A stretch of DNA of 6,877 nt, taken from an uncultured archaeon (GTDB taxonomy: Archaea; Asgardarchaeota; Lokiarchaeia; Sigyniarchaeales; Promethearchaeaceae). The stretch is taken from the NCBI GenBank assembly GCA_964426185.1, contig CAYRPF010000001.1, forward strand, positions 24,821 to 31,697, in the 5' to 3' direction. This document shows positions 1 to 6,814 of the stretch, piece after piece. Each line of letters starts with the position of its first letter. Positions within the stretch are counted from its first letter, which is position 1. Below the pieces are notes generated by a model. It ran no database searches, was not told the DNA's origin, and saw only the letters and a program-made list of their open reading frames with translations. Both the position numbers and the translations under genes were made by a program.

Positions 1-848
1 GCAATTTCTGTCTGAGTTTTACGTTCGGGTGTGGGTTTTGCTGCAATATAAAGAGCTGCTGCTGCTAATCCTTTGGGATCTTTTCCTAATTTCTTTAATC
101 CATTACTAAGTGCAATCCGAAGCATATTTGAAGCTTGTTTTTGCACACCTACAGATAGTTTCAAATCATTACCGAAACGAAAAACTAAAGGTTCTGGAGA
201 AACAGGTTTATAACGCATTTTTAAAACCGGAAAAACCATTCGAACAATTAGACCAAGAGATCGATGCACACTGCGCAATGGAAGCATAGCAACTTCGACT
301 ATTTCTTCTAATAATCGAGGAAAATTATGTATTCGAATAGCTGCGTAGACAGAAGCGGTTACAAAACTATCGATGGATCGGCCCATAGTAAGTTTTTGTT
401 TGGCTACTTCAGAGTAAATTTTCCAAGCTGTTTCAACGATATGTTCTGGAATTGTTAATTTTCGAGCTAATTGATTAAGCTTCGGCCGAGCTTCCCAAAA
501 ATTGCGCTCTAATGAATTCACTAAAGACCCTTGAATTTTTGATAATCGGTTAAACATTGCCTGGCGTTTTCCATGCAACGATTGGCCTTTTGCATCGGGC
601 GAATTTATACCTATTATAGTTCGAGGGCCATAATTTCTCCAACGAGGTTCAGTGCGTCTCCGATTTTTAACTTCATCTGCAGTATAAGCTCTTTTTTCGT
701 GAGATACATATGCACGACCAAGCACTAAACCACAGCTGGCACAGACACGCATTCCTTCAGAATTTACAATGATGTCAGGTGAATTGCAACATTGAACTTC
801 AGATTCATCGTAATCTTTTTCATAAATAGTGGGAATTGCCATATTCAT
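1..848 (-). CDS. tfb: Transcription initiation factor IIB (TFB) family protein, divergent; 3' end truncated by the window edge
   Basis: Manual translation from ATG 848 (in-frame TTG at 851, TAG just upstream, alternative ATG 842) is open to position 1, about 282 aa. It shows a Zn ribbon (QCCNSPDIIVNSEGMRVCASCGLV), B-reader-like HEKRAY, linker SLERNFWEA, cyclin repeat 1 (GRSIDSFVTASVYAAIR) and repeat 2 (GKDPKGLAAAALYIAA...RKTQTEIA). Confidence 0.95.
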   Translation of the reverse strand, partial: MNMAIPTIYEKDYDESEVQCCNSPDIIVNSEGMRVCASCGLVLGRAYVSHEKRAYTADEVKNRRRTEPRWRNYGPRTIIGINSPDAKGQSLHGKRQAMFNRLSKIQGSLVNSLERNFWEARPKLNQLARKLTIPEHIVETAWKIYSEVAKQKLTMGRSIDSFVTASVYAAIRIHNFPRLLEEIVEVAMLPLRSVHRSLGLIVRMVFPVLKMRYKPVSPEPLVFRFGNDLKLSVGVQKQASNMLRIALSNGLKKLGKDPKGLAAAALYIAAKPTPERKTQTEI

Positions 849-1374: not shown

Positions 1375-4062
1375 TCATTTTGAAGATAATTTTTCCAAAA
1401 TCTTATGATCTCTCGGGAGAAGCTTAATAGGGTTTACATCAATACCCGTTAGAGTAGTATACCCTTTGAATCGACCATAAGCTGAGAATATTTCTATTTC
1501 TTCATGAAATTTTATGAAGATTAGATCAATTGGATGCTTAGTTTTATATGTATGCTTGTTAATCCTGATGTTTAAAGGATAATATTGATGAGAAATTGGA
1601 TTTACACCATTGTATATACATGCTGTTAAATGTCCTTCCTCTATTCGGAGAAGTTGGGCTGTATGTCCTACAATATGGGTTTGAATTCTACTGCTAAATC
1701 CCGAATCTGGTTGAAAGATATGAATCGAAACAGGTAAGGTAAAATGAGTTTGGAGATTAAAAATAAAAATATGTTGAATATTTTTTTCTGGATGTTGATA
1801 TACAACCACATGTATCTTGTGTCGGAATAAATATTCTGTTCGAATGGATATATCTATTTTGCGATTTATTCCTTTAGATTGAAGGAAACGGAGTAGAAGA
1901 TTTATGGTTTTTAATGAATTAAATCGTAGTTTAGGATTCAGACGATCTTGGCTTAACCATGACATAAATTCAGGATAGGAAACAGCTTCAAAATCAATAA
2001 CTGGCGATTTTGGAAGTTTGAAGTTTATGCGAATTAGAACTCGTGTAAGAAAATCTATCAAATAAAACCACGCAGTTTTTTTAACTTCAAAAGGATTATT
2101 TGGATGGAACAGCAATAATCCATTACTTTTGGAAAAAGCACAAATTCGTTTTCTATGAGATTTTCTAAGATGACTAGATTTTTCCATGGAAGAAGAAAAA
2201 AAATCCTTCAGAATAGTACATGGTGCAAAATTTTCATCATACTCGGGTATTTCTCCAAAAAGAAATACTATTCCTCCATTTTGCACATAATTAACTAACT
2301 TTCTTTGTACATTTTGCCCTAAAAAGAAAGATGTCCCAAAAAGTAACATTTTATTTTTTTGAGAGTAAGATTTATTTTTATCTAATTGATTGTTTTCACG
2401 ATAAGGGTGAGATATAAAGGTTTTAAGATTTTCATACTCTAAGTTTACCAAATCATAGTCTAAATGCAGATGTTGCATGGCTAAATGAAATTGTGTCCAA
2501 AAATCCTGACCAAAAAATGGTGGATTTCTAATATTTAGATGGTTTCGTTTCCAAAGTTTCGGATCATGTCCCACATATGCCGCTAACTGAACGTAAGGCA
2601 TGTAAATTCCTATACTTAATAAGGCATCTTGTTTGGTTTCTAGAAACTCACTTCCAAAATATTTCCCGAAATATCGATTTATTCCCTCCATCAATTTAAA
2701 TTTATTTCCACTTATTCCTAAGACATCGATAGCTGCGTGAGTAGGATATGGTTGAACAATTCTTCTATCTAACCCTGCATCCCATGATTTAGAAGCAACA
2801 ATTGGCGTTTGAGAATATCCAGGTGATTTCAGAGAACAGCTTAATAATGTTTGGTAAAGTGAAGTAAACGCATATTCAAATTTAGTTGATGAATGCTTCC
2901 GAAGTCCCCAATTAATTGCATTATTTGCTCGCTTTGCATATTTCATCATGATTGAATGACGAGCATAACTGGTCCGATGATAATTTTCAGCCTTACTCCA
3001 ATGGGTAAAGGTGCAAATTACTCCTGTTTCTCGTTCAATTTGAGCCAAATTTACTCGAGTTAACCAAACATCTAAACCAACTCGCAAATCCATTGGTGAT
3101 TCCCATTGGACCAAAAATATGGGGGAAGAATGCTTATACTTCGATAAATCTGTAAGGAAAGATTCCGTTTTGTCTTTTTCGAATGGAAAATGCAACATTG
3201 CACGGAGGTTTCGAAGCCAATTGATATATCTATTATTATTAAACTCAATCCAATCGTTTACAATTAATAAATTTGCAAAATGACGATATTTTCTGTTACC
3301 TTGATATATCGAAGGCGGTATGATTTCTGACCAGTTTTTGTAAGGAGTATGATGATATTTATTGAATCTTGAGATATCGGTATATTTCTGATGCAAGAAC
3401 TTCCAAAAAGCATGAATATTTGGCACTGAATAATCTCCAATGACCCAATAAGGTGATTTCCCTTCCGCATAAAATCCTTGATAACCTAATTGAAGAAAAA
3501 TAATCCGACCCTTAGGATAACTGAAAGATTGTAGAATATTTTGGGAAATTTCTGCAAAGAACTCTTGCAAATATTGCAGAAAAACGCGATCATACGGAGA
3601 AGGTAGTGGCTCCCCCCGAAGTGGTTTCCATCGATTTTTTGAACGTTCTCGATGACCACGCAGAAAAAGATGATTTCGATAACTTTCGATATTTGGATTA
3701 TTCTGAGGATTAACGAAATCTGGCATTCCTCCATATGTTAAACTAGGATCACTAAAGGGACCAAGGCTTAAGCTAATTAAAAATCCCATTTTTTGACACA
3801 ATTGTAGAAAATGTTTAAGGTTTCGATTGGCTTGGGATCTTCCTTCGAAATCAAATTCTTGGGAATTATTTTCAAGATTTAATTGTGAGTGATGTCTCCA
3901 TGGAACCGCACAATGGATAGTATTACAACCGAGTTCCTTCAATTTGGTCAGTCGATCCTCCCAGTTTTCTGTAGCATCACGATAATATGGATATTCCCCA
4001 GCAACAATAAAACAAGGTTTGCCATCTTCCCAAATGGTGCCTCCTCGAATTTCCAAAACCAT
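1375..4062 (-). CDS. GH35/GH42-like beta-galactosidase / exo-beta-glucosaminidase (GlmA)-architecture protein, probably catalytically degenerate
   Basis: N-terminal GH35 signatures DGKPCFIVAGEYPYYR, WEDRLTKLKELGCNTIHCAVPWRHH, FDFEG and GPF...YGGMPDF. C-terminal trimerisation (class I GATase-like) segment QRKLVNYVQNGGIVFLFGEIPEYDENFAPCTILKDF. The true start is probably ATG 4062 (MVLEIRGG, 895 aa) rather than TTG 4209, because family similarity begins there. Confidence 0.85.
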   Translation of the reverse strand: MVLEIRGGTIWEDGKPCFIVAGEYPYYRDATENWEDRLTKLKELGCNTIHCAVPWRHHSQLNLENNSQEFDFEGRSQANRNLKHFLQLCQKMGFLISLSLGPFSDPSLTYGGMPDFVNPQNNPNIESYRNHLFLRGHRERSKNRWKPLRGEPLPSPYDRVFLQYLQEFFAEISQNILQSFSYPKGRIIFLQLGYQGFYAEGKSPYWVIGDYSVPNIHAFWKFLHQKYTDISRFNKYHHTPYKNWSEIIPPSIYQGNRKYRHFANLLIVNDWIEFNNNRYINWLRNLRAMLHFPFEKDKTESFLTDLSKYKHSSPIFLVQWESPMDLRVGLDVWLTRVNLAQIERETGVICTFTHWSKAENYHRTSYARHSIMMKYAKRANNAINWGLRKHSSTKFEYAFTSLYQTLLSCSLKSPGYSQTPIVASKSWDAGLDRRIVQPYPTHAAIDVLGISGNKFKLMEGINRYFGKYFGSEFLETKQDALLSIGIYMPYVQLAAYVGHDPKLWKRNHLNIRNPPFFGQDFWTQFHLAMQHLHLDYDLVNLEYENLKTFISHPYRENNQLDKNKSYSQKNKMLLFGTSFFLGQNVQRKLVNYVQNGGIVFLFGEIPEYDENFAPCTILKDFFSSSMEKSSHLRKSHRKRICAFSKSNGLLLFHPNNPFEVKKTAWFYLIDFLTRVLIRINFKLPKSPVIDFEAVSYPEFMSWLSQDRLNPKLRFNSLKTINLLLRFLQSKGINRKIDISIRTEYLFRHKIHVVVYQHPEKNIQHIFIFNLQTHFTLPVSIHIFQPDSGFSSRIQTHIVGHTAQLLRIEEGHLTACIYNGVNPISHQYYPLNIRINKHTYKTKHPIDLIFIKFHEEIEIFSAYGRFKGYTTLTGIDVNPIKLLPRDHKILEKLSSK

Positions 4063-4207
4063 CAAAAATCTAAAAAACGCTTTTGCATATGAATTTTGTT
4101 TTTCGATTTTTGGTGAGTAGGAAAGCGCATTTTCTTCAGTATGTAAAGTGATTGAATTTAACACATTTATTTTTTTCACAGCAAGAGATATTTCTCTCCA
4201 ATAAGGC

Positions 4208-4221
4208 AAAAAATGATAAAT
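4208..4221 (+). promoter_or_regulatory. Candidate BRE/TATA for the box C/D RNA
   Basis: AAAAAA-TGATAAAT; the TATA-like element begins 26 nt upstream of the terminal stem at 4240. Confidence 0.4.
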
Positions 4222-4239
4222 TATCGCTCTTTACAGAAG

Positions 4240-4319
4240 ATGCAGATGATGATACTTCAAGAGGAAGACCGAAGCTGGAAACAGCTGATGATGAAATCTA
4301 CTCAGGGTATCTGATGCAT
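4240..4319 (+). ncRNA. Box C/D small RNA (sRNA/snoRNA-like), dual guide
   Basis: Stem ATGCA 4240-4244; box C ATGATGA 4246-4252; 16-nt spacer 4253-4268; box D' CCGA 4269-4272; hairpin AGCTG-GAAA-CAGCT 4273-4286; box C' ATGATGA 4288-4294; 16-nt spacer 4295-4310; box D CTGA 4311-4314; stem TGCAT 4315-4319. Both motif pairs have exact K-turn geometry (5-bp stem, GAT bulge, tandem GA). Confidence 0.88.
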
Positions 4320-4321
4320 GA

Positions 4322-4329
4322 TTTTTCTT
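4322..4329 (+). terminator. Oligo-T archaeal-type terminator candidate for the C/D RNA
   Basis: TTTTTCTT begins 3 nt after the terminal stem; a similar GATTTTCTTAA copy follows at 4338-4348. Confidence 0.45.
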
Positions 4330-4626: not shown

Positions 4627-6591
4627 ATGATTAAGAAACCCTTACCTACTGCCCAAAATCAATCAGATTTAAAAACTCAGAAATCCGAATCCAGCACAAT
4701 TTCAGGAAGAGTATCTTCAAAAACGCATCGACGTTATGGATTGGGGCAGATGTTAAGTCAAGGTCTTGGTGGAACTATTGGAGGTCCTATTTTTGTCATT
4801 ATTGGATATGCCTTGTCCGTGGCACGAAGTGGATTACTAATAGCCCTGTTACTAAATGGTATATTAATGCTCGGTTTTATTATGATTTTCTCTGAATTAG
4901 CTCTTTCTTTACCCATCATGGGCGGAGGATACAGTTTTTCTAAGGAAGCTATTGGCGGTGTGCAAGGGTTCTTAATCGGCTGGTTGATTTGGATCGGAAA
5001 TTTACTTTTTATTGCCATCTCGGGGATAGGTTTTGCCTATTCTCTCATCGTATTTTTACCAGACCGATGGATCAGCCATCCTGTAGTAAAATTAATAGGG
5101 TTTGGGATAGTGGTCATTTTTTTCATAATCAACTTACAATCTCCTAAAATATCCTCAATATTATCACGAGTATTGACATTTTCCATCATTGCAGGCTTTT
5201 TGACTTATCTCATCTGCGGTTTAATTTTTGGAAGCCGCCAAAATCCCGATTTTTCCATAAACGTATTTCAGGAACCTTTTACCTTCTCTGGCATGATGTC
5301 GATGATTGCCTATACATTTGTGATATATTGCGTCTACGAATGGAACTCCACCTTTGAATCTATGACCATCTCTTTTGATAAGATAAAACGACCTCGAAAA
5401 ACAATCCCACGCGCTTTTATTTATTCCATTTTAATAGCAATTGGAATCTACTGGTTGGTTACTTTCGTGACCTTGTTAAACATTGGCTCGTTTGAATCAT
5501 CCACTGCTTCGCTTGTTACTTCATCAAATACACCGCTTGCCGATGCATTCGGAATTATGTTGAATTCTCCTATCGGAATTTACTTTATGGGTGTAATTGG
5601 AATGATGGCAACCATGACATCCATAAATTCTGGGCTCCAAATGTCTTCTCATGTGTTGCATTCAATGGCACGGGATGGATTTATGCCCCCAATCTTGAAA
5701 AAAGAAAGACACGGGGTGCAATGGATAGCTTTAATTGTATCTACTATATTGGGCTTGTTAGTAGTGCTCACTTTGAACCTAGATGTAATTACTGAAATTA
5801 TTAACTTCATTTTTTTGGTGTCGATGATTTTCATGTCAATTTCCCTTATCGTTCTGAGAAAAACGCGGCCGAATTTGATTAGACCTTGGAAAATCCCGTT
5901 ATATCCTTTTCTTCCCATCTTTTCCATTATCGTGTGTTTGGTACTAATTAGCACTATGGTGGGCTCTTCACTAGGGCTTTTTGGTATAGTTTATGGGATT
6001 CTTATCCTAGTTTTTGGAGGTATTTATTATCTATTCCAAATATCCCGTCGTGATCGTATCTTCTTAATTTTTTACGGGGCTAAAGTAGGCGTCTCGCTTC
6101 TATATCTTTTAGTCTGGGGGTTATATCGCATAAGGTTTGAATGGATATCCTCCACACCAATTCCTGTTATAGATGTTATCAGTTTTATTTTACTTATTTT
6201 AGGCATCATTACGCTTATTTTTGACTTAATTCCCGCACGACAACTGGTAGCACGATTAAATCGCCGTAAATCTGATGTAGTTGTTGTGTCAGGCATAGTA
6301 AACCTCTCTCCCACCGCTGAACGCCGCGCCCATAATTTCACTTTAATTATTGCCTATTTTGAATTTATTACCAGTCTATTCTTTTTAATAATCGTTATTT
6401 TTTTTGGCTTCAAACTGCTCGCTCTAACATCACCCCTCTTCTCATCGGGTTCTTCGTTTTTGGCAGTGTTGTTCAGCACCCTTGGATTCATTTTAGCCGC
6501 CGTTTATGCAGTAAATGGTGGTGTTCGCCTTGTTACGGAAAAAGAATACATCACTATGCTTTCGGAACCAGCCACCGCTGATGTGGATTAA
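4627..6591 (+). CDS. APC superfamily amino acid/polyamine permease with C-terminal membrane extension
   Basis: 654 aa. TM1 GGTIGGPIF, FSELALSLPIMGGGYSF loop, GFLIGW, KRPRKTIPRA, SMARDGFMP and LRKTRPNLIRPWKIPLYP are all typical APC motifs. 12 core TM segments plus about 4 more. Confidence 0.92.
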   Translation: MIKKPLPTAQNQSDLKTQKSESSTISGRVSSKTHRRYGLGQMLSQGLGGTIGGPIFVIIGYALSVARSGLLIALLLNGILMLGFIMIFSELALSLPIMGGGYSFSKEAIGGVQGFLIGWLIWIGNLLFIAISGIGFAYSLIVFLPDRWISHPVVKLIGFGIVVIFFIINLQSPKISSILSRVLTFSIIAGFLTYLICGLIFGSRQNPDFSINVFQEPFTFSGMMSMIAYTFVIYCVYEWNSTFESMTISFDKIKRPRKTIPRAFIYSILIAIGIYWLVTFVTLLNIGSFESSTASLVTSSNTPLADAFGIMLNSPIGIYFMGVIGMMATMTSINSGLQMSSHVLHSMARDGFMPPILKKERHGVQWIALIVSTILGLLVVLTLNLDVITEIINFIFLVSMIFMSISLIVLRKTRPNLIRPWKIPLYPFLPIFSIIVCLVLISTMVGSSLGLFGIVYGILILVFGGIYYLFQISRRDRIFLIFYGAKVGVSLLYLLVWGLYRIRFEWISSTPIPVIDVISFILLILGIITLIFDLIPARQLVARLNRRKSDVVVVSGIVNLSPTAERRAHNFTLIIAYFEFITSLFFLIIVIFFGFKLLALTSPLFSSGSSFLAVLFSTLGFILAAVYAVNGGVRLVTEKEYITMLSEPATADVD

Positions 6592-6730
6592 AATTTCTGC
6601 AATTCTTTCTGCCACATCGACTGTGATACCAAAAAATTTTTTATCATTCACACTTTGCTAAATATTACATTGGTGATTATTTTTTCTTGATCGCACCTGA
6701 TCAGTTTTTTTATACGAATAACTAAATTGC

Positions 6731-6814
6731 GTAGGAGTAGCCAAGCATGGTCCACGGCGCTAGACTGAGGCTCTAGTCCATAGCGGCGCGAGGGTTCAAA
6801 TCCCTCCTCCTACA
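6731..6814 (+). tRNA. tRNA-Leu (anticodon GAG), intron-less, CCA not encoded
   Basis: Acceptor GTAGGAG/CTCCTAC with discriminator A6814; D arm GCC...TGG...GGC; anticodon stem CTAGA/TCTAG with loop CT-GAG-GC (GAG at 6767-6769); 13-nt variable region; T arm GAGGG-TTCAAAT-CCCTC. Confidence 0.97.

Follow-up and report, generated by a model that had tools for sequence, protein, structure and literature searches.

The window, that is, the whole stretch of 6,877 nt analysed here, belongs to an archaeal MAG of 3.26 Mb with a GC content of 34%, placed in the genus of Ca. Harpocratesius (Lokiarchaeia); an Asgard host had been guessed in the first-pass annotation, correctly. The archaeal context is confirmed within the window by a gene encoding transcription factor B (TFB, with TFIIB repeats and a zinc ribbon) at positions 3–851 of the reverse strand. 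The 11 sequencing runs found to contain this DNA are all DNA metagenomes, from vents and sediments. Further along the reverse strand lies a gene encoding a GH35/GLMA-like protein of 944 aa (1375–4209), GH35-like with a GLMA second domain, and an amino-acid permease gene starts at position 4627 of the forward strand. These two genes are divergent and are separated by a gap of 417 nt, which contains an RNA with the boxes of a box C/D sRNA (4240–4319, forward strand), divergent to the GH35/GLMA-like gene and upstream of the permease gene. The permease gene is directly followed by a tRNA-Leu(GAG) gene (6731–6814, forward strand, 84 nt, Rfam score of 55.6 bits), and a hairpin across its stop codon (6571–6627, forward strand) gives a sub-threshold match to mir-84 (28.6 bits against a threshold of 60) that is probably due to chance or to a terminator-like stem.

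The RNA is bounded by a terminal stem, the 5' strand of which (4240–4244) forms five base pairs with the 3' strand (4315–4319) and provides the canonical helix of the C/D K-turn. The 5' strand is followed by a linker G (4245) and box C (AUGAUGA, 4246–4252), and then by a D' spacer of 16 nt (4253–4268) containing a conserved guide core (4261–4267), in which G4264 is the fifth nucleotide before box D' (CCGA, 4269–4272). An internal hairpin of 5 bp (4273–4277 with 4282–4286), capped by a GAAA loop (4278–4281), forms the canonical helix of the C'/D' K-turn and leads, via a second linker G (4287), to box C' (AUGAUGA, 4288–4294). The D spacer, also of 16 nt (4295–4310), contains a guide core at 4301–4309, with G4306 as the fifth nucleotide before box D (CUGA, 4311–4314). 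All these elements are read on the forward strand, and the layout put forward in the first-pass annotation matches them to the base. At the sequence level, both pairs of boxes have the organization of a K-turn: a helix, a 3-nt bulge (G-A-U) and tandem G·A/A·G pairs, followed by U·U in the terminal C/D motif or U·C in the internal C'/D' motif, and then by a G-C pair. The size of about 80 nt, the closing stem and the helix-closed internal K-turn motif to which attention had been drawn are, thus, all present. Both the terminal and the internal helices are found in the MFE fold, and the internal hairpin alone has a folding energy of –7.2 kcal/mol (z = –3.6). With its 80 nt, 16/16-nt spacers and helix-closed C'/D' motif, the RNA departs from the typical, although non-defining, traits of archaeal C/D sRNAs (50–70 nt, spacers of about 12 nt and a K-loop at C'/D'), the structure of which has been described (PMC6009581). 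Its two internal boxes are near-consensus, unlike those of many eukaryotic C'/D' motifs, according to passages of PMC8413462.

A loose four-box pattern of this kind occurs about once per simulated genome of equal dinucleotide content, but never with a terminal stem of at least 4 bp. A genome-wide scan of the real genome yielded two four-box patterns with such a stem: the RNA of the window and a candidate on contig C70. The latter (270–325, reverse strand) resembles a classical box C/D sRNA, with 56 nt, a 4-bp stem and spacers of 12 and 16 nt; a further box C/D candidate, on contig C42 (2370–2453, forward strand), is doubtful. The regular-expression inventory of C/D candidates in this genome contains only two or three credible members, too few to establish what would be usual for it. 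That the RNA of the window is not itself a chance pattern follows from the conservation of its homologues.

Relatives were identified in a pattern scan of named species genomes: Ca. Harpocratesius repetitus FW102, from the same genus (G001), Ca. Lokiarchaeum ossiferum B35 (G010) and Promethearchaeum syntrophicum MK-D1 (G011), together with two Promethearchaeum MAGs. The copy detected by BLAST in H. repetitus is 92% identical; matches in the genus Lokiarchaeum were partial. A covariance model built from four copies then recovered full-length copies in three Promethearchaeum genomes and a weaker one in a fourth genus (G008). With the model designated R1, full-length intergenic copies were found in Harpocratesius, Lokiarchaeum and Promethearchaeum with E-values of 1e-22 to 4e-8, and every copy with examined surroundings is intergenic. 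The model search found no copy in a further genome of the same genus (G002, with a completeness of 87%) or in three more genera belonging to the family, and pattern scans of species genomes and metagenomes returned the same Lokiarchaeia only. The anatomy of the RNA and its intergenic homologues support the original description of the locus as a stand-alone, unannotated intergenic box C/D RNA, and the comparison with relatives by covariance model that had been proposed as a check shows the boxes and stems to be conserved in Lokiarchaeia.

Boxes C and D are invariant in the eight homologues aligned. Box D' reads CCGA in three genera and CUUA in Promethearchaeum, where the second sheared pair of the consensus is broken, and box C' reads AUGAAGA or AUGACGA in the relatives. 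Of the stem cells in these eight sequences, 88.6% are paired, and both sides change in seven of the ten pairs; the covariation score was not equalled in any of 500 shuffles, and sliding of the partners reduced pairing to 18–42%, these counts being made on an alignment fitted to the model itself. The terminal stem, supported by both covariation and folding, has changes on both sides at four of its five pairs, such that its sequence differs between genera while pairing is kept. The internal helix has undergone a compensatory change from C-G to U-A in H. repetitus, and an unrelated 5-bp helix occupies the same place in Promethearchaeum. For Lokiarchaeum and for the G008 copy, which is weaker and more divergent, folding predicts no stable internal helix. 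The GNRA-capped hairpin proposed as part of the architecture is, therefore, a genus-specific feature and not a property of the family. The symmetric 16-nt spacers are, likewise, real in the window but not a family trait, with lengths across the family of 16, 17, 16, 16, 13 and 15 nt for the D' spacer and 16, 16, 13, 14, 24 and 15 nt for the D spacer. The 24-nt D spacer belongs to the MK-D1 copy, in which the guide has been partially duplicated internally. In the L. ossiferum copy, the D'-C' linker contains no hairpin but a 9-nt direct repeat, the two units of which are separated by three bases.

The sequences flanking the RNA are conserved over a shorter range. An A/T-rich element centred about 24 nt before the RNA (4208–4223, forward strand) is a candidate BRE/TATA promoter, and a T5 run (4322–4326, forward strand) is a possible archaeal terminator. 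Such TATA-like and oligo-T flanks had been described for this locus, and both are indeed present in the window; the A-run and the ATGATA motif of the A/T-rich element are even found at the same distance in L. ossiferum. Neither flank is kept family-wide, however: the A/T-rich element is shifted by 8 nt in H. repetitus and is unrecognisable in Promethearchaeum, and a T5 run also follows the MK-D1 copy but not most others. A promoter and terminator scan of the window found nothing, the scan being bacterial in design and not applicable to archaea. In MK-D1 (L053 1501–1587, reverse strand) and L. ossiferum (L008 1496–1584, reverse strand), the RNA lies on the strand opposite to both flanking genes, which argues for a transcription unit of its own, and the RNA of the window is probably also transcribed separately. 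The GH35/GLMA-like neighbour has the same arrangement in H. repetitus (L006 1–1365; 55% identity), and in L. ossiferum the sRNA lies beside a GLMA-domain gene (L008 1593–3008); this arrangement is absent from MK-D1.

Potential targets were sought in the aligned SSU and LSU rRNAs of the three complete relatives (G001, G010 and G011), each with its own guide, and were scored as the contiguous run of pairing containing the fifth nucleotide before the box. They were read in the rRNA of relatives because the corresponding regions are missing from the genome of the window, in which the SSU is not assembled and the LSU contig ends at model position 2435, before both target sites. For the D guide, the best conserved site is at position 2561 of the H. 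repetitus LSU, the pairing runs in the three genomes being 9, 9 and 11 bp long, and none of 300 position-permuted guide sets performed as well. The guide of the window pairs with LSU positions 2438–2446 (E. coli numbering; rRNA of the same genus) over 9 bp, including one G·U pair, on the 5' strand of helix 74. The nucleotide opposite its fifth base corresponds to E. coli 2441, in the numbering of the alignment of Dennis et al. Further support comes from position 8 of the guide (C4303 in the window): a C at this position accompanies a G at LSU 2444 (Harpocratesius, Lokiarchaeum and G171), and a U accompanies an A (Promethearchaeum and G250), G171 and G250 being two further Asgard lineages obtained in a phylum-wide model search. 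The D guides of these two lineages (L108 and L110, compared with LSU L111 and L112) have an A·C mismatch at position 7 against their own LSU; the LSU of the Promethearchaeaceae has a U opposite the A at this guide position, and pairing is perfect. A 13-bp match near LSU 400 (GUAUCC.GAGUAG) is found in L. ossiferum only, with an A·C mismatch in Harpocratesius and no pairing in Promethearchaeum, and was attributed to chance. A whole-genome scan for guide matches with G·U pairs allowed was swamped by low-complexity matches in this 34% GC genome.

The conserved part of the D' spacer comprises only the seven or eight box-proximal bases. Its core is GAGGAAG in Harpocratesius and Promethearchaeum and AAGGAAG in Lokiarchaeum, and it pairs over 7–8 bp with LSU positions 2494/2495–2501 (E. 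coli numbering), with the fifth position on C2498, which is position 2618 of the H. repetitus LSU. The site belongs to the central loop of domain V and lies 57 nt further downstream than the D site. Considered alone, it is not significant, since 23 of 300 permutations gave a result as good and a second 7-bp site, at LSU 644, ties with it. A conserved D' site as good as this one within 100 nt of the D site was obtained with 13 of 1,000 permuted guides, in a proximity test chosen after the result had been seen. For both guides, the fifth-position pair is a Watson-Crick G-C pair in every lineage examined.

The GAGGAAG guide is also present in shorter sRNAs of a sister family of Lokiarchaeia (L086, L087, L089, L090, L092, L093 and L097), where it precedes box D and not box D'. 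These C/D sRNAs are 64–77 nt long, the nucleotide adjoining the box varies between them, and they provide an example of a guide module changing its context; movement of guide modules between D and D' contexts has been described in archaea (PMC4644070). A 66-nt RNA (L107) of another Asgard family (G212) combines both guide cores, ordered as in the window, with a 5-bp terminal stem, but differs from the RNA of the window in its classical 12/12-nt spacers and its unstructured linker. Ten uninterrupted bases of its D' guide are complementary to LSU 2495–2504, as read in G001, G010 and G011, the LSU of G212 and those of five sister-family MAGs being unassembled.

The pair of targets proposed here was obtained before any comparison with published tables of archaeal guides, and it is found in one of them. 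The sR16 RNA of M. kandleri has predicted targets at C2715 and C2772 of the 23S rRNA (Dennis et al. 2015, PMC4644070, Additional files 1 and 2), which correspond to E. coli 2441 and 2498 because the alignment block 2701–2800 is equivalent to E. coli 2427–2526 (PMC4644070). The two RNAs, thus, have the same two predicted targets, 57 nt apart, with the D' guide directed to 2498 and the D guide to 2441, and both have CCGA as box D'. They differ in form: in sR16, the spacers are 12 nt long, the duplexes comprise 10 bp and the C'/D' linker consists of 9 unstructured nucleotides (K-loop type), whereas the RNA of the window has 16-nt spacers, duplexes of 7–9 bp and an internal motif closed by a 5-bp helix with a GAAA cap. 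Nothing is alignable between them outside the boxes and guide cores, and intermediates exist within the Asgard archaea. The suggestion that the locus might represent an undescribed family is not supported, given that its guides match those of an already catalogued double guide. Single members of the pair recur elsewhere: S. acidocaldarius sR128 likewise targets C2715, and an sR414 entry targets C2772 (PMC4644070). Double guides whose targets lie within 100 nt of each other account for about half of all archaeal sRNAs, and methylation hotspots cluster around the peptidyl-transferase centre (PMC4644070). The helix-closed C'/D' motif is not new for archaea either, since Ignicoccus hospitalis sR474 and M. 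kandleri sR49 have one; they display the same succession of CCGA, a 5-bp stem with a 4–5-nt loop, one linker nucleotide and box C' (PMC4644070, Additional file 1), but carry other guides, and the spacers of sR474 are 12–13 nt long.

The comparison with Rfam that had been advised for this locus returned no family at the gathering threshold. The best match was to snoR44_J54 (23.1 bits against a threshold of 48), and the archaeal sR families scored no more than 16 bits. Eukaryotic box C/D snoRNAs such as snoR44_J54, snoR77Y and snoZ17 resemble the RNA of the window in their size (70–100 nt), terminal stem and variable spacers; the sub-threshold scores, obtained mostly with length-matched eukaryotic families, reflect the boxes and the matching length only. 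The view that the RNA is closer to eukaryotic snoRNAs was not borne out, as the classical 12/12-nt form is present in another Asgard lineage. For the same reason, the elongation is best regarded as having arisen locally and not as an ancestral, eukaryote-like condition. Literature searches found no description of Asgard C/D sRNAs, which does not prove that none exists.

Taken together, these results suggest that the 4240–4319 segment (forward strand) is a real box C/D sRNA acting as a double guide for C2441 and C2498 of the LSU rRNA, close to the peptidyl-transferase centre, a reading drawn from comparisons of sequence to which we assign a probability of about 0.8. Four other explanations were weighed against it. 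In the best surviving of them, an RNP bound near the peptidyl-transferase centre would serve as a chaperone for pre-rRNA folding, without methylating one or both of the sites. The duplexes are short (7–9 bp), an A·C mismatch is present in two Asgard lineages, and the long spacers depart from the spacing of about 12 nt that Tran and colleagues are said to have found, in 2005, to be needed for efficient methylation. Against this explanation stand the Watson-Crick G-C pairs at both fifth positions in all the lineages examined and the fact that the two nucleotides concerned are those predicted to be methylated under the guidance of a classical sRNA, sR16. In E. coli, C2498 is 2'-O-methylated by a protein enzyme, a point that also counts against a role restricted to chaperoning. 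Chaperone roles for double guides have been proposed (Dennis et al., PMC4644070), but such a role seems rather improbable as the whole explanation here.

The odds are poorer still for a box C/D guide with the D guide directed instead to helix 24 of the SSU, at the site corresponding to Cm1007 of yeast 18S rRNA. A sequence perfectly complementary to the D guide would start with AUACCC, a motif shared with the universal helix-24 sequence, and the divergent G008 copy would pair over 10 Watson-Crick bp at helix 24 if its SSU reads like those of its relatives. A match to yeast snR79, which we take to be the Cm1007 guide, reached 13 bits, far below threshold. The SSU of the three genera has, nevertheless, four Cs followed by GG at helix 24, such that the guide of the window pairs over 6 bp before an A·C mismatch and the Promethearchaeum guides over 5 bp, and the helix-24 site is not among the best conserved sites. 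The covariation at guide position 8 also tracks LSU 2444, and not the SSU, the sequence of which does not differ between the three genera.

It is very unlikely that the element acts in cis, as an L7Ae-binding K-turn regulating either the GH35/GLMA-like gene or the amino-acid permease gene. L7Ae is reported in passages of PMC5539422 to bind K-turns in mRNAs, and a GH35/GLMA-like gene is the divergent neighbour of the RNA in Harpocratesius as well as in L. ossiferum. The RNA cannot, however, be part of the mRNA of this conserved neighbour, because the two are on opposite strands; in H. repetitus, an ORF on the opposite strand lies between the RNA and the permease gene, and the neighbours of the RNA in MK-D1 are different (a zinc-ribbon protein and a Ras-like GTPase). 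Regulation in cis would, in addition, leave the conserved guide cores and their covariation with the rRNA unexplained. A small protein gene can be dismissed, since the frame of 33 codons that is open in the window, from an ATG at 4213 to a TGA inside box D (4312–4314), is interrupted in the closest relative, H. repetitus, by an in-frame TAA inside the D' spacer, an 8-nt upstream indel in that species puts the ATG out of frame, and the substitutions compensate one another in the stems instead of being synonymous.

If the double-guide reading is correct, the RNA would be expected, by analogy with characterised archaeal sRNPs, to assemble and to direct methylation in the usual manner. Both K-turns, the terminal C/D one and the helix-closed internal C'/D' one, would be bound by L7Ae, and a Nop5 dimer and two fibrillarins would then assemble on the RNA. 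The 7–9 box-proximal nucleotides of each 16-nt spacer would serve as guides for the large-subunit rRNA, the additional 5' nucleotides being unconserved slack. On nascent 23S rRNA, the presumed substrate of the sRNP, the D guide would pair with the 5' strand of helix 74 and direct a 2'-O-methyl group to the cytidine at E. coli 2441, and the D' guide, in the central loop of domain V, would direct a methyl group to C2498. The genome of the window encodes the core proteins, with fibrillarin and Nop5 genes adjacent on contig C39 and two genes of the L7Ae family. The start of the fibrillarin gene coincides with the Nop5 stop codon. Nop5 (L083 1051–2328) has 425 aa, of which about the last 40 form a Lys/Arg-rich tail that recalls the charged tails of Nop56 and Nop58 in eukaryotes.

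The RNA is a lengthened form of an already catalogued archaeal double guide, ordinary in kind, and not a new type of RNA. The Promethearchaeaceae form is distinguished by its length, by its tolerance of variable spacers and, in two genera, by a true internal helix. Its description adds an unannotated RNA gene to the genomes of Lokiarchaeia, including those of both cultured Asgard strains, and provides two precise predictions of ribose methylation beside the peptidyl-transferase centre, which are directly testable because both cultured strains carry the gene. The same double guide is found in Methanopyrus and in Asgard archaea, with an architecture that has drifted and no alignable sequence beyond the boxes and cores, through either common descent or convergence. 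This drift, towards longer and variable spacers and with gain or loss of the internal helix, bears on the rigidity of the archaeal Nop5 "ruler". One tentative interpretation, which we consider unlikely, is that the C/D machinery of the Promethearchaeaceae has lost the strict rule of about 12 nt, such that a single orthologous guide can function with spacers anywhere from 13 to 24 nt long, whether C'/D' is closed by a K-turn helix or spanned by a long unstructured linker. If this were true, MK-D1 and L. ossiferum would constitute a natural series in which the possible relaxation of a symmetric archaeal sRNP into a length-tolerant eukaryotic snoRNP could be tested.
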